64,000 bases of DNA from Peribolospora baueri. Lineage: Eukaryota. The DNA lies in assembly GCA_029717555.1 (NCBI GenBank), contig JAMDHS010000018.1, positions 62,001 to 126,000 on the forward strand, given 5' to 3'. The translations under genes were made by a program, and so were the position numbers. Positions 9,484 through 37,939 of this stretch are shown piece by piece. A model generated the notes under the pieces. The model had not been told where the DNA came from and ran no database searches. It was given only the letters and a program-made list of their open reading frames with translations. Every line of letters starts with the position of its first letter. Position 1 is the stretch's first letter.

Positions 9484-11943
9484 TCAATCATCCTCATCCT
9501 CGCCATCTTCTCGCTCATCCCTAACTGATCTCTTGATTACGGCCCTGAGGGTGATACAGAAGAAGGCGGTCTTTAGCGTTTTCGTCCGAGCACTCATCTC
9601 CTCTTTCCGTCCGAGCACGATGCAAACTGGTGCGACGCCCAGATTCATCCGCCGAGGGAAGACGCACCTGAAAAGGATCCGCCACATCAGGAAGTACCAG
9701 AACAGATTAAGGAGAAGCAAAAGGAAAAGAGGAGTGAAGACCTGTCCAGCGGCGGGGAGGAACGAATGGAAGGGGAGAGTCCAGACAGGGTCAGAACAGG
9801 TCCGAACAAGGCGAACGTTGGAGAACGGAGCGTTAAACGGCTAATCCCCTAGAATAGCTCGCCACGACGATTGCAAGTACAAGCTCTGACTTCCGAGTCC
9901 TTCGTTCCTCCCACTTCAAACCCCGAACGCATATTCACCTGATACTTCATCCACCAAGTCAACCACACGCCTTCGCTCGGCCTGAAGAACTTGGCGTGTT
10001 CAGGGATGAGGTCAAACTCGAACCACACCGATCGGAGTGTGTCGGCGGAAAGGTAAATGCGGAAATAGCTGGCGTAAGTGGAATCAGAACGATTGACATA
10101 TAAAGTGAACAGCCGCGAGTGAAAAGTGAGTGAAAAGGGTTGTGTACGGTAAGAGATATGCCCATAGGTACGCAGAACATACAGCAAGCAGGAGAAGACA
10201 AAGCTCAGACTCACGTCCAAAGAATAATGAACGTAAGGAACGCAACAATTGACGTCCTCTCCAGCTTCATATAGTTGATCGACTTTGCGAGCTGTGTTAT
10301 TACGAGAAAACGAGTGGCCGACGACAAGAAACAGATACGTGGTAAGCGCAAGGTTCGGCCGCGATGGAACATGGTCGCGAAGATCGGACGATAGTTGCGC
10401 TCGAGAGCGATAAAAGTCGTTGGAGCGCAAGGCTTACAGCGAGGAAGCAATCTGGGATATCCATGCAGCAGAACACGGTGGTGCCGATCATGGTGAGGTT
10501 GATGCCGTAGCTCCACCCGACGAGCCAGAGAGTGACAAAGTGCTGAATGGGATGGATCAATAAATATATAACAGACCGAACGGAGGGATGTCAACGTCAG
10601 CGCGGGCGCCGGAACCCCTCGGGTGATAAACGGCGGACTCACGTGAGCGATCAGCTCGTTGTAGTCCTTGCGCGGCTTCTCGAGCTTGAGGATCATGACG
10701 ATGGCTTGCTGGAGCCAATAGGAGAGCTGAAGGAGGTAGTATGCCTTGAGCTCCGGCTTCATGCGCCAATGCGGGTACTCTGCAAGAGATGCAAAGGAAG
10801 AACAAGGACACGATGCATGAGAACGCAGGTGGGAGGTATGGCCGGTGCTACGGAGACCACTCACTCAACCAGAAATGTTCCGTCTCTGCGCAGCATAGCG
10901 CAGTTAGCCAGATAGTGAGGTGACAGAGGGAGGTGATAGGGTGAGTCCATGGTCGCCAAGTGGAGCACAGCAATCGTCTGCGCCTGATCGCAGGTTGCAC
11001 TGGAGTGCATCAATCACTCACGGTACCACCAGTTCTCTTGCCTACTCATGACATACAACCCGAGCGAGCTGGAGAGGCCGAAAAAGAGGATGGCGTATCC
11101 CTGCTCCATAAACCTTTGCAGCTTCACCTCCTTCCTAATGCCCCACCACTTGGCAAAAGGCCTAAAGATGTAGAGGGTGGTAGTCTGTCGGAAGCAGGAG
11201 AAGACGATGACGTAGAACGCCAGGAAGCACAGGTCCAGAAGTCCTTTCCCGTACCGCACGTCCGACGGGTCCTCTCCCGCTTCCGGCGGCAGACGGTAGG
11301 ATAGGAAGATGAAGGGAGCGAAGGGGTTGGGTACATTGGGCGTGAAGAACGCCCAATTTGCCCACAGCAGGACGACGAACGATGCGAGCTTGAAGGAAGA
11401 AGCTGGGAGCGGGAAAAAGAGTTCGGCATAGGACATTGCAAGGAGAACGGGGAAACAGAAAGATGGATTTGATCGCATCAGTCGGAATTAGGCTCATTTG
11501 CGCGATCGGAGACGCGCACGCATCGACCCACCTGGCACCTTCATCCATTGCATGGTGACCACGTCTTCCCAGAGGGACGCCGTGATCTTATGGGGCCCCT
11601 CATCCATCGACTTCCGCACCGTCGCGCTCTGTCCGAGCTTGCTCTCCTTCGCCGCCTTCCTCTTTCTCAACCCGCCATCTGTAGAAGCGGCAGGAGAAGC
11701 GTCCTCCTCGGCGGCGGGGGAGGCGGCAGCGATGCGCTCGGCGATGTCAGTCATGGTCTGTTCCGCGGGAGAGAAACTATCGACGTCGAGCGGGCTCTGC
11801 TCTCCCAGGTGGAGGTGCGCGAGGTGATGGTCGGGATCGTTGCGGGCGCTGTTCACCGAGTCGATGATGATGCGGGACATAGAGCGGCGCTTGCGGACCG
11901 AAGGCTGGGAGGTGCCGTTGGCGGTGGTCGATGACGACGACAT
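9484..11943 (-). CDS. LAG1: Ceramide synthase (TLC/Lag1 domain)
   Basis: YGKGLLDLCFLAFYVIVFS, RFMEQGY, KAYYLLQLSYWLQQ, EKPRKDYNELIAH|HFVTLWLVGWSY...MDIPDCFLA (Lag1 motif), LNLFWYFLMWRI, acidic tail DEREDGEDEDD. Confidence 0.92.
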
Positions 11944-27372: not shown

Positions 27373-29656
27373 ATGGTGGCGGATGGTGAGCCGAGTCCAG
27401 CCATCGGTCGAGTGAAAATAAGCAGCAATCGATGCTAAAGGTCGCTCCTCCCACCCGTCGTATGCTTAATTTCGACCAGAGGCGCTGACATCACGCGAGC
27501 GCCAGGCGAGGGCGCAGGAAGTGCTCGCTGCCATGCTCGACAGACCTTCGGCAAAGGCAAAGCTTCTTTCGGAGATCGTGAGCCAAACGGCCGGCACTTG
27601 TGGTGCCGGTGCAAACGATCTTCTTCTCTACGTTCTCACGCCCTTCTGACGTGCTCAACAGTTACGCTCGAAAGACAACCGATTTCAAGAGTTCTGTCCG
27701 CACCTCACCCGTCTCGAGTGTCAGCAGAGGATGGGTACTGTATGTCCGAGGGTGAGTGAAGCTCGCGCTATGGCCGTATCTTCTTCATCCTGTCTACTTT
27801 CGATGTGCTCCATCTTTCTCACTTCGGTTCTGTGCCTTTCATTCACGTTCTTTAGGTACATTTCCGACCTGTCTATAAGGTGAGGGAGGCTTGCCTCAAG
27901 CCTTCAAGCGGTCTCATGCACCAGAGGCTGACGACGGCGTGGACTCTTCTTGTCTTCCAAAAGCCTCATACGGACCCGTCCTTTGGACATTGCAGGTGTG
28001 CATACTCCTCTGCCAAATTATCCCGAATCGAGTCAAGGCTGACTGAACGGTTGCGGACCGTCCCCACCCTCTCTTTTTCTGCCTCATCCCACCGGGTGCA
28101 TTCTTATTTTTGTGCAGCTACCTCAACACCTGTCACCGAACAGCAACTTGCAAGTACATGCACTTCGACCTTGACGAGTCGGGCGATTTCGAATGGCAAG
28201 CCCCGTACGAAGAGGCCGTGGATCCGATCACCCAGGCTGTTGGCAGCTTGGAGGCGTACCCTGAGTGGAGGAGGGGTTGGCAGGTAAGCTGTTCAACTGA
28301 CTACTGGATCGAGAGAGTATGCGAAATGGGACGAATGACCAAGTCAACATTCCGGTTTTTTGTTTGCTTTGTTCGGGTTGGTCGAATGAGCAGCTTCCAC
28401 CTCAGTGGTTGAACGTGGACTTGAGAAACTTTGACTTTTCAGTGCTGGGCAAGTTTGACGTCATTTTGGCAGACCCACCGTGAGTCGCTTTACTGGTCTG
28501 CCGCTATCCAAATCTCCGCTTTGACTTACGGTCTCGGTGATCTTCTACTCTCCATGATGGCAGGTATGACATCCACATGGTGAGAATAATTTCTTCGATG
28601 ATGATTGCGACTCATGCCGACGCCTTACGCCCTTCGACCCTTCTCCACGGCCGCGCAGAGCCTACCCTATGGAACAATGACGGATGACGAGCTTCGATCA
28701 ATGTCAGTCCCACAATTGCAAGACGAAGGTCTCTTTTTCCTCTGGGTGACCGGCAGGGCGCTCGAGCTCGGGCGCGAACTATTGGCTCACTGGGGGTGAG
28801 CGCTTTGGTTACCATTTCTCGGCTCATACGCTCTATCCAGGGACTGAATTTACTGTTGCACGCGACAGATACACGCGCGTCGACGAGCTCATTTGGGTCA
28901 AGATCGGCCAAACGCAGAGGTTGATCAGGACCGGTCGGACGGGTCATTGGCTCAAGTGAGTGTCCTGTTTTAGGGGGAATCTTGTTTTGCCGGTGCGATG
29001 CGCAAGGCGGAAGGCGGCCACTGATAGGCTCGTATTGCTGCCCCTTGGCACCTCTCCTCGTCACTCTCGCAACTACCAGCCACACAAAAGAACATTGCCT
29101 GATCGGCGCCAAGGTGCGCAATCGTCCTCCCAACATCCTCGTCGATGGCCCAGCGAGAGCCGTTCCTACTTGGGTAAACCGTGGGATTGACTGTGACGTG
29201 ATCGTGAGCGAGGTGAGGAATACGAGTAGGAAGCCAGACGAGCTGTACGGGATCATCGAGAGGCTTTGCCCCGGTGGGAGGAAGATTGGTGAGTTTACTG
29301 CGAGTAATCGAGGTCGTGGTTGCGCTCGAGTTTCAGCTGCAAGAGACGAAAGGTCTCCACTATCGTCTAACGGCTTCCCTTTCGTTGCTGGACGATGACA
29401 GAGCTGTTTGGAAGGTGGCGCAACGTCCGGCCAGGGTGGCTGACGCTTGGAAATCAACTTGGACGCGGTGACGAGATTGTGAGTACGCTGCGTCACGGCA
29501 CTTTTGCGTTGTGAACAGTGAACGGTCCTCTAACGCCAACCCCTTCCTCGTCGGCCGTTCCCCCGTCGCTAGCATGACCAAGGTCTGAGGGAGAGGCTCG
29601 TACGCCGATATCCTGAACGTGCTGTCACTCTGTCGTCGTCATCCGTCCATGCCTAG
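27373..29656 (+). CDS. IME4: mRNA N6-adenosine methyltransferase catalytic subunit (MT-A70; METTL3/Ime4 orthologue)
   Basis: Zinc-finger region [10 protein letters not shown]...[28 protein letters not shown]70 domain [26 protein letters not shown]...[14 protein letters not shown]...[21 protein letters not shown]...[15 protein letters not shown]...GWLTLGNQL. The start may be at 27295. Confidence 0.93.
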
Positions 29657-30126: not shown

Positions 30127-30279
30127 CTATCTTGGGTCCTTATCTGTATTCAAGACATTTGCACGTGTTGTCCTTCTCTAAATTTCATTACAATCCTTCT
30201 CTGCGTCCGAGAGATAGCCGCGATAAGCGAGCCAGGGCGCCCTTTATATAACCCACACGACCGGCGAACGATCAGATAG
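30127..30279. promoter_or_regulatory. Cluster of GATA-core sites plus TATA upstream of the thymine dioxygenase
   Basis: CTATCT 30127, TTATCT 30140, AGATAG 30212, CGATAAG 30221, AGATAG 30274; TTTATATAA at 30243. Confidence 0.5.
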
Positions 30280-30345
30280 ACCGACGTCCTCCTACTTTGC
30301 CCTTCCGTCCAGCTCTCTTTTCGCCTCAAACCCGTTTCTCAACTC

Positions 30346-32180
30346 ATGTCCACCTTCCGCTGCTCTCGAGCTCTCGCCTCACGCGGTCTCCGCCAAGCCT
30401 ATGGTGTGCCAGTGCGAAGGTTGGCAACCGTAGCAGAGGTGTGTGTGGGGGAAAGGGGAGGGGGTTTGGAAGTCCGGCGGCTCCTCTGGAGTGCCGAACA
30501 TGTGGGTTAACCACTCTCCCCGTATTTTCCTTGCAGGCTCCCAAGAAGGCTGTTTCTTTTAAGATCCCTGTGGTCGACTTTAGTCGCTTCCAGCACGCCC
30601 AGTCGGACGCCGAGAAGCTCGACTCGGCCAAGGAGCTCGTCCACGGCTTCAAGGAGGCCGGCTTCGTCTACTTGGACAAGCACTCCATCCCTGCCGAGGT
30701 GGTTCGGGACACATTTGCAATGGTAAGTTGGAGGCCTTCAACTATGGCTCCGCAGGCTCTACTGGACGGGTCGTCGACAACAGAGGCCCGCTCGAACGGG
30801 CGCTGATCCATTCTCCCACTTGAATGACCAGAGCAAAACATTTTTCGAACTGCCCATGGAAACGAAACTTCGTCTTTCTTGGAAAGGTGCGTGTCGGAGA
30901 ATCTGTCATCAAAAACCAGCTAGGATCAAGGTGACGTCTGACTTACCCTACCCAATCCCACCGCTTGCCTCTCAATCACGCTCGCCTCCTCATCGGCTTT
31001 ACAGATCCTCGCTCCAACCGCGGTTACGTAGCTCCAGGCAGAGAGCTGGTGACGCAGTCTAAGTCAGCCGAGGAGATTGCAAAACTCCGCAAGAGCAAAC
31101 CGGACTACAAGGAGTCCCATGAGATCGGGAGAGAGTGGGACGAGGTGTGGCGGAACGAGTGGCCTACAGAGGCGGAGGTGAGCTCTTCTGATGACTTCAA
31201 GTGAGGGGCTGAGTACAGTACAAGCCGTCCAGAAAAAAAAACCGTTGCTGATGCGACATCGATATCCGCACGTATTTCTTTTTTTCCGAACCAATAGCTC
31301 CCAGGCTACAGAACGACGATGCTCAGCTTCTTCCGCACCTGTCACGAGCTGCACGTCTCGGTGATGCGCTCTCTCGCTCTCGGCCTTGATCTTCCGGAGC
31401 ACTGGTTCGATGACAAGGTAGGTGGACCAGGGAATAGCTGTCTCTCCTTTTGGTCGGCCGAGATTAGATGGGTAAAATGGCTTCCGATCTTGCCTAGCAT
31501 GTCTTCCTACTTCCCTGCTCCTGAACTAACTGCAACTCTCGACTTGCACCCTGCTTTCACTCAATCCACCGCCCTCAGGTCAACGAGCAATGCCACAACC
31601 TCCGCACACTCTGGTATCCTTCCATACCCACCAAGCTCCTCCGCACGGGCGGTCATCGTGCTGGGGCCCACTCAGATTACGGAACTGTTACTTTACTCTT
31701 CCAGGATCAGGTGGGAGGGTTGGAGGTGCAAAACCCACATACGGGCAGTTACGTCCAGGCGACCCCCATTGAGGGCACTATCGTTGTGAATGCTGGAGAT
31801 TTGTTGTGTGAGTCGACAAATCCCTCTTTGAAAGGCCTATTTAACGCGTCTGGACTGTCCGTATATGGCCACGATGCGCTGGCCGCCCCAGAGACGGTCC
31901 TGGATCTGACTCTCTCGTTCGGTTTGGATCCTATTCAGCCCGCTGGTCGAACAACGTCCTCCGCTCGACCCTTCACCGTGTCGTCGCGCCAGCCGTTGAC
32001 CCGAATGCCGGCGAGGATGCCAAGACGCCCTCGCGACAGAGCATCGCTTTCTTCTGCAACCCCAACTTTACACAGAAGATCGAGTGCATCCCCACCTGTG
32101 TGGGCGAAGTGGGGCCCAAGTATCCTCCCATCGGGACGGAGGAGTATATTGTGTCGAGGTTGAAGGATACATACAATTGA
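30346..32180 (+). CDS. Thymine 7-hydroxylase (thymine dioxygenase)-like 2OG-Fe(II) oxygenase
   Basis: IPVVDFSRF, HGFKEAGFVYL, W|..PRSNRGYVAPGRE.VTQ, PDYKESHEIGRE, HSDYG (HxD), TLLFQDQVGGLEV, RWSNNVLRSTLHRVV (distal His), RQSIAFFCNPN (RxS). Collinear with fungal T7H as I recall it; adjacent to an IDCase gene. Confidence 0.85.
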
Positions 32181-32378
32181 GTGGTGGGGCGAGAACATTG
32201 GCTCAGCCGCTGCGTTTCGAAGAACGGTATGTGGTCGATGATATGTCACTATTTAGGGTATTTCCGGCGCTTTCCATGCCCCATCCCTTTTGTCCATTGG
32301 AATGAACACATCATGAACCTTTAAGGCCAGTAAGATTGGTACTCTGCTCGCCCTGGGTCAAGCAGGTGGATCCGTTGC

Positions 32379-34193
32379 TCAGACGTCCAACCCGAACAGC
32401 CTGATTGCGTTCTCGCCTTTGACGTCCGCCTTGTCCTGCGCAGTCCAAGACTCTACGGAGTCGATGGCGCTGAGGTTCTCTTGCACACTGCGCCATTGCA
32501 GTTCTTGTTCTTCTGCAGTGATGGGTGGGAAGAAAGGGTGGTCGGTGCCTGCGGGCGAACGAAAAATAAAAATAAAAAAATAAAAAAAAAATAAAAAAGA
32601 GGAAGAGGAAGAGGAAGAGGAAGAGGAAGAGGAAGAGGAAGAAGGAATGATGAGCGGGGTGGTCGAGCGACGGGATGGAAGGCGGCCTCCGAGGAACGGC
32701 TGCGTATGCGCGTCCTCGGACTCACCAAACATCATCCTGCCAACGCCAGGTGTCCCCTTCCTATCGATCATATATTTGGGCTCCTCCAATCCCCTCTTGA
32801 ATCCTCTAGCTCTGCCGGCCGTCTTAGCCACGAACTCCAACTCCTCTGCACCGTACGCCACAGCGTCATAGTAGAGCTTTCCAAGGTAGTACCTCACGTC
32901 GTGCTGGAGACGAGAGGAAACGAGAGGGTCGTGGATTACACAAGAGGAGAGGCGAGAGGAGAGGGCCGGAAGAGCACCGCCACTGTGTGCCAGAAGGAGA
33001 CGAAGGTTCGGCAGGCGATCAAAGATACCAGAGAGGATCAGGCGGGTGGCGGCCTACGGAAGAAGGGACGCGCGAAGAAGCTCCGTATCAGTATGTGTGA
33101 AATGTTCAGGTAGCGGAGCCATGTGAAGCAGCAAACAAGGAGAGCTGAGACGGTCTTTTGAATCAGTTCAACGCCAATTACCTACAATTGTCGTCTCCAT
33201 AGGAAAGCCCATAGCCAAGGGTAAGACGTGGCCGTTCTCCTTGTCGCCGTATAGCCCATCCGGACGATTCGTGTCAGCGCCAAAGCCGTAGTGAGGGTGC
33301 TAAGCGGTGGAATGCAGATCGGCAAGTAACAGAGGGTAGCAAGAATGAAGAGCGTTCCAATGGGGAGAGAGACAAGAATGGGGATCTGTCAGTGGACCAC
33401 TACACAACATGAATCAGAGTGACAGGCGGATAGCATCTGCTCACCAGAAAAACGGTTAACCCCTCCTTACCAATCTCTTCCCAAACAGGTAGCAGCCTCT
33501 CGTCATCCAGTCCTTTGCCAATTCCCCGACTGCCAAGGATGAGACCCTTCAAATGAGGCAGCTCGGCAATCTGCTTCACCGCCTCTCTAAGCGCTTCGAT
33601 GTGTATGCCCTCCACAAGCGGGAGGACTCCAAAGGCAAAGAGCCTCTTATCGGTTCCAGGAGCAAACTTGGACGAGAGGGAAGATGCGATAGAGGGCGAT
33701 TGTGAAGATGGGACGGTGGCGCAGTACTCTTCCAGGTCTGCGTTCACCTCTAACGCGGCTTGCACAGCCTCAGAAGGGGAGAGGAAGTCGAGCCACGGGT
33801 TGGCGGGGGAGACAATCGACACGTCAATAGAATGGTTGTCCATAAAAGAGAGTTTGGCAGCGCGAGACCAGTACTGCAAAAACAGGATGAACACATGGGC
33901 AAGAAAAGTGTAGGGGGGGATCGATGAGTCGTCAGACGAAACGTCAAGAAGCCAGCACGCTACCGGCCTACCTGTTCTCCAATGGGTCTTCCCCCGCTAG
34001 GCTCATCTGGAAGGAGCAATAATCTGTCCTCGCTCGTTTTTCCGTCAGCCGACGTCCTAGAAACGATCTTGGGGACTTCTGTGCGTCGGCGCATCATGTC
34101 CACCAGACGAGGGGTGTAGACATGCGTGTGGACATCGACGAGGAGCGGGCGCTTGAAGACCGCGCGGAGAGCGGAGAGTGGAGCGGAGGACAT
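32379..34193 (-). CDS. Uracil-5-carboxylate (iso-orotate) decarboxylase, amidohydrolase superfamily
   Basis: VDVHTHVY (HxH metal motif), KLSFMD...IVSPANPWLDF, GIGKGLDD, VFL|HPHYG, GHVLPLAMGFPMETTI|A, LLLAHSGGALP, MMFG|TDHPFFPPI. These are diagnostic IDCase motifs. Confidence 0.9.
32599..32640 (+). repeat. (GAGGAA)7 microsatellite next to an A-rich tract, inside the last IDCase intron
   Basis: Directly visible. Confidence 0.95.
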
Positions 34194-34498
34194 CTGCAAC
34201 GAATAAAGATACTGGAAAAGGGCGGGAAGCTGTGAGGCCAAGTACGAAGAAGGAGAGGAGCGAGGAGGGCGATACTTTCCAGCTCGTCGTCCATCCCCGC
34301 TCGCCTCGTCTTCTCGATCGTGATAAGACCCGCCCGCGCACGGACGGTTCGCGTAGCCGCAGCAAATAAGAGATAGGGAGATAAGTCTGGAAGACGGCTG
34401 AGCCAAGTCGTGCGCAACGCCGGACGGCTTGAGAGACGACTGGATTCTTCTGGCTCATGGTTGCTTGAGCCGGTATGTTTGCCTCTCACATTCGCCGA
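34194..34498. promoter_or_regulatory. Putative bidirectional promoter (IDCase/ALDH) with three GATA sites
   Basis: 305 bp between the divergent ATGs; TGATAAG 34321, AGATAG 34371, AGATAAG 34379. Confidence 0.55.
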
Positions 34499-37400
34499 AT
34501 GGCCTCCACGAGCACATTAGGTCGCAAAGCCGCTCTGCCTGCGTCATTAGTAAGTTCGCTTGAAGGACGTGAAGAGAAGCCGGGGTGATAACAGTCGGCC
34601 AAGCTCAGAAGATGACATTTATCACATTGAACCCAACAGAATCGAACTTATGGCCCCTGGATTGGCGGCCGGATTGTGATTGACACCGGTGCGGAAAAGT
34701 GAGCCCGTTCCGACTGAGCGTCCTCTTTTTCATCTCCAGTCGGCGACGCTGATGTTGGACCCTTGCCCTCACGGCTCATGTGTGTACAGGCTGTCCATTG
34801 AAGATCCCGCGGACGGATCTGAACTTGCATAGTGAGGAAACGAGATCTTACTTTTTTCTAATCATTTTGCCCCCCTGCTTAACACGTTCGTTGGATATCT
34901 TGTTGTCGTTTTCATCCCTCCATTTACTTTTCAGCGTCCACCAACCCACGCCGGCACACGTTTCCAGCGCTCTGACCCTTGCCCAAGATACCTTTGATTC
35001 TGGAACGTGGTCCCGAGCTTCCGCAGTGTATCGCTCTAAAGTGCTGTCCAAGATGGCTACACTCTTAGAGGAGAGGGTGGGAGAGATGGCCGAGGTGGAG
35101 ACTTTACAGACAGGCAGTGAGTGAAAGTAACATGATGGATGTTTAATGACATAAATGGGAGGGATCCTACTAGAAAGGAGAAGCAACGACCTGATGAACG
35201 CATTATTTCTTTTATTTTATTTTATTTTATTTTATTTCTTTTACCTTTTCGTTACCGCTCCGCCGCGCAGGACCGATACGGGAGATGAAAGCCCAGCTAA
35301 GCAGGCTTCCTGAATGGCTGTGAGCCATACGATCTCTCGTATTCAGGCAAAAGGTCTGGAACATACGACCGGCGTGCACATACTGATATTCTCCTATGCC
35401 CCATCTGCTCCAACGGATGATCGAAGTCATTACTTCTCGGCCCTACTTCGAACTTATGAGGTGCGAGCGAAGCTACACGTCGCTGTTTTTGGTGCTCACA
35501 TTGCCTGACTTCTACCGAACTCGTCGTCCCCTACCGTGCATACTACCCTACCGTTCACTCTTTGTTGAATTATCTAATCAGAACTCCCTCCTCCCAACCA
35601 CGGGCCCCTTGCTCAACTACACCACTCGTATACCGTTGGGGGTCGTCGCGCTCATCACGCCCTTCAACCATCCCCTCCTCATCGCAGTCAAGAAGATTGC
35701 CCCAGCACTCGCTGCTGGTAACGCTGTCATTGTGAAACCTAGCGAGGTGTGTACGAGGAGAGACAGAAGAGGAAACACCATGTCCATTGGTTGTTCTTCT
35801 CGTCTTGCTTTGTTTGCCGTATGGCGTTTCCATCCTTGCTGAGGGATCCAAATCGTGCGAAACTCACATTAATGTTTCCAAACATGCATATAATGTTTTA
35901 TTATTTCCCTTTCTGAAGCTTGCACCGCTGACGGTTCTCCAATTTGCGGAGCTTGCGCAAGATGCCGGCCGTAAGTCGGGTCACTGACCCAGAAGATATT
36001 CGCCTTTTCCCTTGTGTTTTTCCCACTCTTCCTCATTCTCGTCCATTTCCATTGTGTTTGACCACGCAACAGTCCCAGACGGCGTACTGTCCGTCCTTCC
36101 AGGAGTGGGGCCGAGCGTTGGCAAACAAATCATCGAATCGCCTCTGGTGAGGAAGGTGGACTTGACCGGTGGTAGTAAGTGGGCTACTTCGACCTTACTG
36201 CATCGTTGGAGGGGGTTGGAACACTCCTTGCTGACGTGCATTGAGCGCATGCAACCAACTTTCCTCCTCGCTTTTACTTCCTTTCTTGCATTTCTTCACG
36301 CCTCGCCTCTCGGCACACAGCTGAAGCAGGCCGAGCCATAGGTCGCACCGTGGGAGGCAATCTCGCCTCCTACACGGCTGAACTGGGCGGGAAGGCAAGT
36401 CGTCGTTCCTTCCCCTTCTCGTTGATTTTCGTTTCCCGATAGGCGGGCAGGCTGCAGTGGATCATGGTCTAGGTGCAGAGGCATACGAGCTGAATTCTGA
36501 TTGCAGGCTGCTGATCTGCCCCGTGTCCACCTTTGCACCTCTGCAATCGCGCCGACAACGATGCCCTCAGGCCCCTATCCTCATTTTCGACGATATCGAC
36601 CTAGACCTGGCCGTGAACGGCGTCTGTTTTGCCAGCTTCATCGCCAGTGGACAGACGTGAGTTCCACTGAAGATCCGCTGTTCCCCTCGCGTTTCATTTG
36701 CTCCTCTCTTCTTGTTTGCTCTGCTGATCTTCAAGCGGGTTCGCAAGCTGACGTGCCTTCATTTTCCTCCCTTTTACCCTTTCAAATAACCTATTCTACG
36801 CACGTGCACACAGTTGTGTCTCAGGAACACGCATCCTCGTACAGGAGAGTATACTACCCACATTCCTGGAAAAACTCAAGGAGAAGTGTAAGAGCATTGA
36901 GAAGAGGATGGGCGATCGTGAGTATATTTGTTGCTGATCTGCGAGGACGTGGGAAAGAAAACTGTTCCTTTCCCGTGCTCATCTTTTGGTCTTTAGTGAC
37001 TCCCAAACGTGGCCCAAACTCACTTGCAAACTTTGTATGGTTCTCACCATGCTTCCTTGCCGATAGCCGCAAATCCTTCTTCGACAATGGGTCCCGTCAT
37101 CTCTTCCGCTTCCCTCTCACGAGTACAATCCTTTATGTCCAGCGCCATCTCCGAAGGCGCCACGGTCCTCACCGGCGGAAAGCGGTTGGAGGGATCAAGC
37201 CAGCTGGATGGCTTCGACCGGACTCAAGGATATTTTTTCCCTCCTACTGTTTTGGTAGACGTCACCACCAACAGTAGAGTTTGGAAGGAGGAGGTGTTTG
37301 GGCCGGTGAGCCTTTATTGCAAGTCTTATCCTGAGCGGGCAAGCAACGAAGTAGTGCTTAGCCAACATCGCTTCATCATTGGGGCTACTGGCCTTGTGTT

Positions 37401-37939
37401 GAGCATGATTCTGATGATTAACAGGCATGCCTTGATTAGAGACCGCTGGTTCTGACTGTTACCTTCCTGTTTCCTACAGGTCATTTGTGTTATGCCGTTC
37501 AAAGACGAGCCTTCTGCGATCCGTCTGGCCAATGACTCGCAGTATGGCTTAGGTGCGGCTGTCTGGACGTCGAATGGAGCACGAGGTCACCGCGTGGCGG
37601 CAGGCATTGAGGCAGGCCTCGTGTGGATCAATAGCCATCACCGAAATGATCCTAGCAGCCCCTGGGGTGGCATGAAGGACTCTGGCATCGGGAGGGAGAA
37701 TGGTCTGGAGGCTTTCAGGGCTTGTGAGTGGACTGATTGTCATTCCTCAAAAAGGTCAGAGCCATTTGCTGAAAACGAGCAAACGCTCTCCCCCTCTATC
37801 CTTTTCCACACCCTCGTTATTCCTCAACTCGCCAGACACGCAAACTAAGTCAGTGATAATGAGCACTGCCAGTGAGGAGCAGGCGCTGCAGACAGACGAC
37901 TGGTTTGCGGATGATGGAAGTGAAAAGCGGTACGGTTAA
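34499..37939 (+). CDS. NAD(P)-dependent aldehyde dehydrogenase
   Basis: [45 protein letters not shown] (catalytic Glu), FIASGQT|CVSGTR (catalytic Cys), [29 protein letters not shown]. Confidence 0.93.

Follow-up and report, generated by a model that had tools for sequence, protein, structure and literature searches.

A 64,000-nucleotide stretch of Peribolospora baueri DNA (contig JAMDHS010000018.1, positions 62,001 to 126,000; hereafter the window) contains three intact, intron-rich genes at 30346-37939 that were predicted to encode a thymine-7-hydroxylase (T7H), an iso-orotate (uracil-5-carboxylate) decarboxylase (IDCase), and an aldehyde dehydrogenase (ALDH). By sequence tests, the first two encode the branch of fungal thymidine salvage that turns thymine oxidatively into uracil, in which T7H oxidizes thymine via 5-hydroxymethyluracil (5hmU) and 5-formyluracil (5fU), and IDCase decarboxylates 5-carboxyuracil (5caU) to uracil. 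The third gene belongs to a conserved eukaryotic ALDH clade, for which the name ALDH-X is coined here, and its recurrent gene neighborhood makes it a candidate 5-formyluracil dehydrogenase, a tentative assignment to which we give a little less than an even chance. Such an enzyme would oxidize 5fU to 5caU with NAD+, would open a second route for the final oxidation that is independent of 2-oxoglutarate (2OG) and O2, and would clear a reactive aldehyde. An ALDH acting on 5fU would yield exactly the substrate of IDCase, and the Neurospora crassa T7H binds 5fU about threefold more weakly than thymine (PMC4787775). The locus, with hand-built exon models, is organized as follows:

30346-32180, forward strand: T7H gene, ATG at 30346 and stop at 32180; 7 exons, 365 amino acids (30346-30438, 30537-30722, 30832-30886, 31005-31177, 31298-31417, 31579-31807, 31939-32180)
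32181-32378: 198-bp interval separating the convergent T7H and IDCase stops
32379-34193, reverse strand: IDCase gene, ATG at 34193 and stop at 32379; 5 exons, 420 amino acids (5' to 3': 34193-33972, 33873-33445, 33299-33186, 33053-32726, 32548-32379)
34194-34474: divergent intergenic region between IDCase and ALDH, ATG to ATG, 281 bp
34475-37939, forward strand: ALDH-X gene, stop at 37939; 15 exons, 536 amino acids
ALDH-X exons 1-8: 34475-34549, 34640-34698, 34790-34831, 34935-35116, 35271-35319, 35427-35460, 35582-35746, 35919-35970
ALDH-X exons 9-15: 36073-36174, 36321-36394, 36571-36656, 36814-36917, 37067-37305, 37480-37723, 37836-37939

The dioxygenase is by sequence a true T7H orthologue, a reading that the first-pass annotation had taken from its motifs and that best-match and residue tests bear out. 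The Pfam domains DIOX_N and 2OG-FeII_Oxy were found on the exon-bearing open reading frames (ORFs) 30252-30803, 31525-32160, and 31845-32177. The best solved structure for all four T7H exons tested was the Neurospora crassa thymine dioxygenase (5c3p/5c3o, E 1e-12 to 8e-19), and the families that came next scored far lower. According to the report on the N. crassa enzyme (NcT7H; PMC4787775), iron is bound by His214, Asp216, and His271, 2OG by Arg190, Leu192, Tyr194, Leu223, Val273, Arg286, and Ser288, and the base by Phe292, Tyr217, Asn87, Glu122, and Asn294; a helix network comprises Thr215, Asp256, Ser268, Tyr324, and Arg328, the last two being on the C-terminal helix. In HMMER alignments to 5c3p and 5c3o (in 5c3p, chain indices run two above the residue numbers), the window T7H was identical at 19 of these 20 functional residues, the sole change being Thr215 to Ser.

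The amidohydrolase is likewise by sequence a true IDCase orthologue, as the earlier annotation had claimed. Over its full length, the model shared 56-60% identity with basidiomycete homologues; its N-terminus is about 10 residues longer than that of its homologues, and its matches among solved structures at E ≤ 0.01 were IDCases only (including 4hk5 and 4lan). PMC6305744 gives His12, His14, His195, and Asp323 as metal ligands, His251 and Arg262 as carboxylate binders, and Arg68 and Asn98 as uracil-specific residues that are absent from LigW and gamma-RSD; three Phe residues are also named. All 11 positions (His12, His14, Arg68, Asn98, His195, Phe222, His251, Arg262, Asp323, Phe326, and Phe327) are kept in the window protein, Asn98 being aligned directly to the structure and Arg68 being placed by a multiple alignment and its gap-free extension. 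A different reading, as ACMSD with an aminomuconate-semialdehyde dehydrogenase, was rejected, as no ACMSD structure matched at E ≤ 0.01 and the protein has both Arg68 and Asn98. Pfam assigns T7H and IDCase to superfamilies only, and either one could in principle be a paralogue with another substrate, in which case this would not be a thymine-salvage locus. Such a paralogy is hardly credible in view of the 19 and 11 residues retained, the uracil-specific pair among them, and of the fact that the best or only solved relatives are T7H and IDCase themselves.

Both enzymes keep the catalytic and substrate residues of the structurally known members of fungal thymidine salvage (N. crassa T7H, 5c3o-5c3s; Cordyceps/Metarhizium IDCase, 4hk5, 4lak, and 4hjw). 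The first-pass annotation gives the two genes as neighbors in Neurospora, where T7H is presumably NCU06416. NCU06417 is named as the uracil-5-carboxylate decarboxylase uc-7 in PMC8550094. An IDCase alignment was used to scan JGI metagenome contigs, and the 80 loci obtained were searched with the three window proteins. Since a T7H match scoring 100 bits or more lay 5' of IDCase on the opposite strand in 22 of the 80 loci, pairing of the two genes is common, and the T7H/IDCase pair of the window is in itself ordinary. Among the 22 intron-less loci with GC content below 0.6 and at least 1.4 kb of upstream flank, 20 had the divergent T7H. The arrangement differs, however: T7H and IDCase are tail-to-tail in the window and head-to-head in the 22 metagenome loci, and the divergent partner of IDCase is the ALDH here and T7H there. 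As a further difference from fungal salvage, the Pfam scans of the window showed neither a nucleoside 2'-hydroxylase nor a nucleoside hydrolase, and T7H was the sole 2OG oxygenase in them. One metagenome IDCase (L075, 57-1166; GC 0.42; 11/11 residues) has about 20 basic, hydroxyl-rich residues before its HxH motif, which look leader-like.

The ALDH carries Pfam Aldedh (PF00171) on five exon-bearing ORFs, and its motifs occur once each (NHP at 176, KPSE at 199, ELGGK at 274, and GQTC at 305), so that the catalytic Cys (GQTC), the general-base Glu (ELGGK), and the oxyanion Asn (NHP) are all present. The fold and these three residues are those of betaine/aminoaldehyde and hydroxymuconic-semialdehyde dehydrogenases (4go3, 2wme, TIGR01804). 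The variable exon 37000-37281, used as a query, returned eight distant matches of at most 50% identity; the conserved exon 37480-37722 returned 1198 proteins at E ≤ 1e-8, and comparisons were made on the best 120 of them. Among these, many basidiomycete proteins were 55-65% identical to the spliced ALDH over its full length, the closest being P0118 of Mrakia frigida (65%), and oomycete "betaine aldehyde dehydrogenases" were 52% identical. In the ESM Atlas, only generic ALDH and amidohydrolase clusters were found.

In a maximum-likelihood tree of 92 rows with support from the Shimodaira-Hasegawa-like approximate likelihood ratio test (SH-aLRT), the window protein paired with Mrakia (SH-aLRT 94), and the pair was sister to an Agaricomycete clade in which Tulasnella branched first. 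The basidiomycete clade had 100% SH-aLRT support, and the next group out was the oomycetes. The ALDH looks vertically inherited because this pattern mirrors species relationships, and it is orthologous to a basidiomycete clade that looks single-copy. The tree also fits the earlier label of a "probable basidiomycete," which the best full-length homologues of IDCase and ALDH, being basidiomycete proteins, support. In the phylogeny that had been called for to place the ALDH, the protein falls in the conserved eukaryotic ALDH-X clade and in no characterized one. ALDH-X as a whole is placed outside every characterized family. No NCBIfam equivalog cut-off was reached by the orthologue P0118, which was scored in place of the window protein (435.6 vs. 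668.6 bits for TIGR01804 betaine aldehyde dehydrogenase (BADH); 421.1 vs. 593 for NF009725). The best solved relatives of P0118 were the hydroxymuconic-semialdehyde dehydrogenase 4go3 and bacterial BADHs (2wme). In contrast to the BADH-type enzymes, ALDH-X is under the equivalog cut-off and has a strongly conserved C-terminal tail of its own, with an HHRNDP...WGG block and a terminal DWF...RY.

The proposed function draws first on the neighborhood of ALDH-X in fungi. Linkage was assessed from the names, contig figures, and accession numbers or locus tags of the homologues, which are a proxy for gene order and not coordinates; two proteins were counted as being on the same contig when they carried an equal "longest contig" figure. 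The 109 IDCase homologues and the best 120 of the 1198 ALDH homologues had 12 species in common, of which seven had ALDH-X and IDCase on one contig:

Tulasnella sp. 403: IDCase FRB99_002368 and ALDH-X FRB99_002366 on a 33.7-kb contig, 0-2 genes apart
Ramaria rubella: IDCase KAF8591485 and ALDH-X KAF8591484 on the same contig, consecutive accessions
Moniliophthora roreri: same contig, 29 accessions apart (33 in a second strain)
Jaapia: same contig, 33 apart
Paramarasmius: same contig, 39 locus tags apart
Leucoagaricus: same contig, 62 apart
Cristinia: same contig, 82 apart
Plicaturopsis, Cantharellus anzutake, Macrolepiota, and Phlebiopsis: ALDH-X and IDCase on different contigs
M. perniciosa: uninformative, contigs too small

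That 7 of the 12 species have both genes on the same contig, in one case a contig of 33.7 kb, is far above chance, and it speaks for ancestral linkage rather than for function. By this proxy, the ALDH-X/IDCase linkage appears clearly to be ancestral in Agaricomycotina, and tight adjacency was retained in at least three deep lineages, namely this organism, Cantharellales, and Gomphales. The two genes thus stand side by side in deep fungal lineages, and in the window they share the 281-bp region, which is presumed to be a common promoter. The first-pass annotation had asked whether the ALDH is syntenic with IDCase elsewhere; it is in Tulasnella, Ramaria, and the giant-virus-like contig described below, and it is not at most other loci examined.

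The second source of support is a short AT-rich contig, L031 (1520 nt, GC 0.26), on which the C-terminus of an ALDH-X is followed after 33 bp by IDCase and then by the convergent C-terminus of a gene resembling 3-hydroxyisobutyrate dehydrogenase (HIBADH). The ALDH-X fragment comprises the last 58 residues, including the clade tail, and is 60% identical to that of the window; the IDCase has 11/11 key residues. This IDCase is 71% identical to that of a contig (L141, GC 0.22) from a giant-virus metagenome-assembled genome (MAG), where IDCase (10004-11014, 11/11 residues) is followed after 39 bp by a uracil phosphoribosyltransferase (UPRTase; 11053-11700) that passes NCBIfam NF001097. The neighboring genes on L141 are typical of giant viruses (XRN, poly(A)-polymerase regulatory subunit-like, NUDIX, MazG, and SET). 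Scanning a viral collection with the ALDH-X alignment gave six loci (GC 0.22-0.25) whose ALDH-X proteins were 45-46% identical to the window ALDH and formed a 100%-support clade inside eukaryotic ALDH-X, apart from bacterial relatives and from the ALDHs of Spirochaetaceae; viral ALDH-X scored 446.1 bits against the 668.6 required for TIGR01804. At all six loci, a HIBADH-like gene lay directly 5' of ALDH-X on the other strand (tblastn). Divergent pairs were delimited at:

L143, 9002-11464
L144, 828-3260
L145, 8955-11401
L146, 827-3264
L148, 1955-4387

About four distinct viruses are represented, because L144/L148 and L145/L147 are near-duplicates. The viral HIBADH-like proteins (295-304 amino acids) were 58% identical to the HIBADH-like fragment of L031, carried NAD_binding_2 and NAD_binding_11 at all four loci tested with Pfam, and fell under every NCBIfam cut-off, with HIBADH as the best match (86.8 vs. 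a cut-off of 291.6 bits). Their best solved relative was the uncharacterized 4gbj. The third-best was 3cky (E 2.9e-16), a distant relative within the HIBADH family; it is a 2-(hydroxymethyl)glutarate dehydrogenase, which converts a hydroxymethyl side chain to a formyl group. Since L146 shares the bin name of L141, one bin appears to hold HIBADH-like, ALDH-X, IDCase, and UPRTase genes, although binning is not proof. A T7H scan of the viral contigs found one GC-rich locus only, with generic 2OG oxygenases of 30% identity. An AT-rich prokaryotic counterpart of L031 was not found in the genome-collection scan, and among 401 genomes of the class of genome G001, a true IDCase was present in G001 only, the other 11 matches being paralogues of 28-33% identity.

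On L031, therefore, IDCase is wedged into an otherwise fixed ALDH-X/HIBADH-like pair, which favors a role of ALDH-X in the formation of the IDCase substrate. A broader proposal is that ALDH-X, a HIBADH-like 5hmU dehydrogenase, IDCase, and UPRTase would form a route independent of oxygenases, running from 5hmU through 5fU, 5caU, and uracil to uridine monophosphate, that is a module of giant viruses of marine protists; in basidiomycetes, the ALDH step next to IDCase would have been retained to bypass the third oxidation by T7H. We regard this proposal as possible but doubtful. The module might recycle host DNA rich in 5hmU. By analogy with 3cky, oxidation of the hydroxymethyl group of 5hmU by a HIBADH-family enzyme would be chemically reasonable. 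Methyl-group oxidation pathways such as the upper xyl pathway for toluene use an oxygenase, an alcohol dehydrogenase, and an aldehyde dehydrogenase to convert CH3 to CH2OH, CHO, and COOH ahead of decarboxylation, their later steps being NAD-dependent, and the viral set of HIBADH-like, ALDH-X, and IDCase would match this logic. No xyl-type route for thymine or 5hmU was described in the literature searched, and no salvage of 5hmU by a dehydrogenase to 5caU was found, as judged by titles and the openings of abstracts. Giant virus combined with aldehyde dehydrogenase and 3-hydroxyisobutyrate dehydrogenase gave no literature match. No paper on a giant-virus IDCase-UPRTase pair was found, and no search named IDCase in giant viruses.

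The same viral pair could be read differently, with the ALDH acting in pyrimidine metabolism on another aldehyde, such as malonate or methylmalonate semialdehyde, 5-formylcytosine, or a formyl-nucleoside. A HIBADH-family enzyme and an ALDH are the classical pair for 3-hydroxyacid/semialdehyde steps, and malonate and methylmalonate semialdehydes are released on breakdown of the uracil and thymine rings. The viral pair would then resemble bacterial mmsAB (HIBADH plus semialdehyde dehydrogenase), in keeping with HIBADH as the best NCBIfam match of the partner. The yeast URC route of uracil degradation also begins with UPRTase, which adjoins IDCase in the virus. Nevertheless, ALDH-X retains the ELGGK general-base Glu motif of hydrolytic ALDHs, which to our knowledge is missing from CoA-acylating methylmalonate-semialdehyde dehydrogenases, and neither the window nor the viral loci scanned yielded genes for opening the pyrimidine ring. 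As for 5-formylcytosine, which the first-pass annotation had offered as an alternative substrate, nothing in support of it was found for this ALDH.

Bacterial operons bear on both readings. Two MAGs of Spirochaetaceae (L120, 2-3590; L121, 3474-7136) contain a tandem of an ALDH, an IDCase-family gene, and an Amidohydro_1 gene, so that an ALDH directly precedes an IDCase-family gene there as well, which favors the 5fU dehydrogenase reading by analogy. Amidohydro_1 includes deaminases, and this third gene would fit cytosine-type substrates and hence an aldehyde other than 5fU. However, the Spirochaetaceae ALDHs are outside ALDH-X, and Arg68 of the decarboxylase is replaced by Val. The operon is best taken as an analogy and not as the same system; it may represent a related route for another 5-substituted pyrimidine. 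Taken together, an aldehyde other than 5fU is an improbable substrate class for the window ALDH.

Several observations weigh against the assignment of ALDH-X to 5fU. In vitro, T7H by itself carries out all three oxidations (PMC4787775), and the window T7H retains the residues needed for 5fU. Four of the 12 species compared above have ALDH-X and IDCase on separate contigs, and in another five the two are 29-82 genes apart by the accession proxy. Ten basidiomycete-like metagenome loci whose flank reaches 5 kb or more on one side (L004, L006, L010, L011, L014, L020, L025, L028, L030, and L036), whose IDCases were 48-57% identical to that of the window, had no T7H or ALDH in their flanks; none of the 22 T7H-bearing metagenome loci had an ALDH; and the AT-rich IDCase contig L072 had none within its 114 nt upstream of the gene. 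ALDH-X was found in Mrakia and in oomycetes, where the IDCase search gave none, which is weak evidence as that search was word-limited. Fungal and oomycete ALDH-X proteins are extended at the N-terminus by 15-40 residues, with R, K, S, and L abundant among them, and exon 1 of the window ALDH encodes 4 K+R and 0 D+E in 25 amino acids; such extensions look like mitochondrial-type leaders, and the IDCase homologues do not have them. Finally, relatives of ALDH-X in Pseudomonadota (43-46% identical) occur in modules of a GntR/FCD regulator, the ALDH, and a major facilitator superfamily (MFS) transporter (L160, 7952-12472; L161, 7393-11163; L162, 6558-11135), with a divergent alpha/beta hydrolase too in L161 and L162. 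This context is unrelated, and no IDCase, T7H, or HIBADH-like gene was present in these modules.

Another explanation, to which we assign a substantial but clearly minority probability, is that the ALDH would be unrelated to the pathway, probably a mitochondrial housekeeping enzyme, its adjacency to IDCase an ancestral accident persisting in a handful of lineages, and that T7H and IDCase would carry out salvage by themselves. ALDH-X extends beyond the organisms for which an IDCase was found, adjacency was lost in most Agaricomycetes, and T7H is self-sufficient in vitro. A search for common promoter elements agrees with it, as the T7H upstream region and the IDCase/ALDH spacer had 12 8-mers in common, which is not above chance (shuffles, mean 5.8, maximum 17). 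No NCBIfam equivalog threshold was met, and therefore nothing of that kind ties the ALDH to pyrimidines. On the other hand, an unrelated ALDH leaves unexplained the position of IDCase between ALDH-X and its HIBADH-like partner on L031 and the presence of ALDH-X, HIBADH-like, IDCase, and UPRTase genes in one giant-virus bin. The excess of same-contig species also stands against it, within the limit given above.

The genome-collection scan gave 47 loci, and IDCase homologues were found there in Alphaproteobacteria (L081-L119, e.g., L084, L089, L096, and L103), in taxa including Rhodopila, Reyranella, Enhydrobacter, and Acetobacteraceae. The five sequences checked, including those of Rhodopila, Reyranella, and Asaia, had 11/11 residues. 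Their neighborhoods were heterogeneous, with no adjoining ALDH, and T7H-like genes were near IDCase at 2 of the 47 loci. On L103, the IDCase gene comes after a GntR regulator and a luciferase-like monooxygenase.

The gene models were predicted by hand from three-frame prints and then verified by coordinates. They contain no internal stops, and 23 of their 24 introns are GT-AG, the remaining one (ALDH intron 36395-36570) being GC-AG; the window as a whole is intron-rich eukaryotic DNA with a GC content of 52-63%. The distance of 198 bp between the convergent stops of T7H and IDCase had been given correctly in the first-pass annotation. The head-to-head arrangement of IDCase and ALDH also holds, but the spacing of 305 bp does not; it is 281 bp, as the ALDH ATG lies in an upstream exon that had been missed. 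The start was placed there because the frame with the conserved N-terminal strand has no ATG. This exon of 75 nt (34475-34549) is followed by a 90-nt GTAAGT...CAG intron and encodes a 25-residue peptide similar to the N-terminus of Mrakia P0118. The T7H gene also has, in comparison with fungal salvage T7H, an extra basic N-terminal exon (30346-30438), which encodes a 31-residue leader with 6 K+R and 1 D+E and appears to resemble an organellar leader. T7H and ALDH each start with a separate small exon coding for a basic, acid-poor leader, and the two leaders may indicate a common organellar location.

A close relative (organism B, run X3), diverged by about 1.7%, carries these three genes in unchanged order. 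The comparison covered 12 of 35 indels and 40 of 165 substitutions, those listed. All 10 of the listed indels within 30346-37939 are non-exonic, five being in introns and five in the IDCase/ALDH spacer; because only 12 of the 35 indels are listed, their placement gives partial support for the gene models. In organism B, a 513-nt piece of the ALDH (37234-37746, from the end of exon 13 to exon 14) forms a contig of its own at twofold depth and is flanked on both sides by foreign sequence, as if a second locus shared the stretch. Simple repeats occur in the last IDCase intron (32553-32650; a CTT/TCC-type run plus T-runs) and in ALDH intron 4 (35200-35248; TTTTA-type), and both stretches were left out of the comparison with organism B as repetitive.

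The surroundings were examined by comparing ORFs of at least 95 amino acids over most of the window with Pfam (120 and 113 ORFs in two scans). Housekeeping genes were found upstream (clathrin adaptor small chain, TLC, sugar transporter, SDR, ribosomal L2, GATA factor, BAR/PH, and MT-A70) and downstream (WD40, amino-acid transporter, methyltransferase, Vps39, and APH). These scans revealed no second 2OG oxygenase, nucleoside hydrolase, base permease, or UPRTase, and the cluster is confined to T7H, IDCase, and ALDH. The MT-A70 ORF (adenine methyltransferase family; 28925-29395, forward strand, E 1.1e-10) lies just 5' of T7H.

Thymine-to-uracil conversion serves as the textbook model for the chemistry of TET-type oxidative demethylation, and the pathway has been taken to need T7H and IDCase only. 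No paper proposing an ALDH step in thymine salvage was found in a literature search that excluded subscription-only papers, the original cloning papers among them, and 5-formyluracil and aldehyde dehydrogenase co-occurred in the literature searched in an unrelated DNA-repair assay only. If the ALDH is unrelated, the locus would be one more copy of a known two-gene pathway. If ALDH-X does act on 5fU, an NAD-dependent 5-formyluracil dehydrogenase would be a new enzyme activity in pyrimidine salvage; it would account for the removal of a mutagenic base aldehyde by cells and assign a function to a conserved eukaryotic ALDH clade. The viral HIBADH-like, ALDH-X, IDCase, and UPRTase genes would in that case represent virus-encoded reclaiming of modified thymine, and the gene set would supply enzymes with which to detect or convert 5hmU, 5fU, and 5caU.

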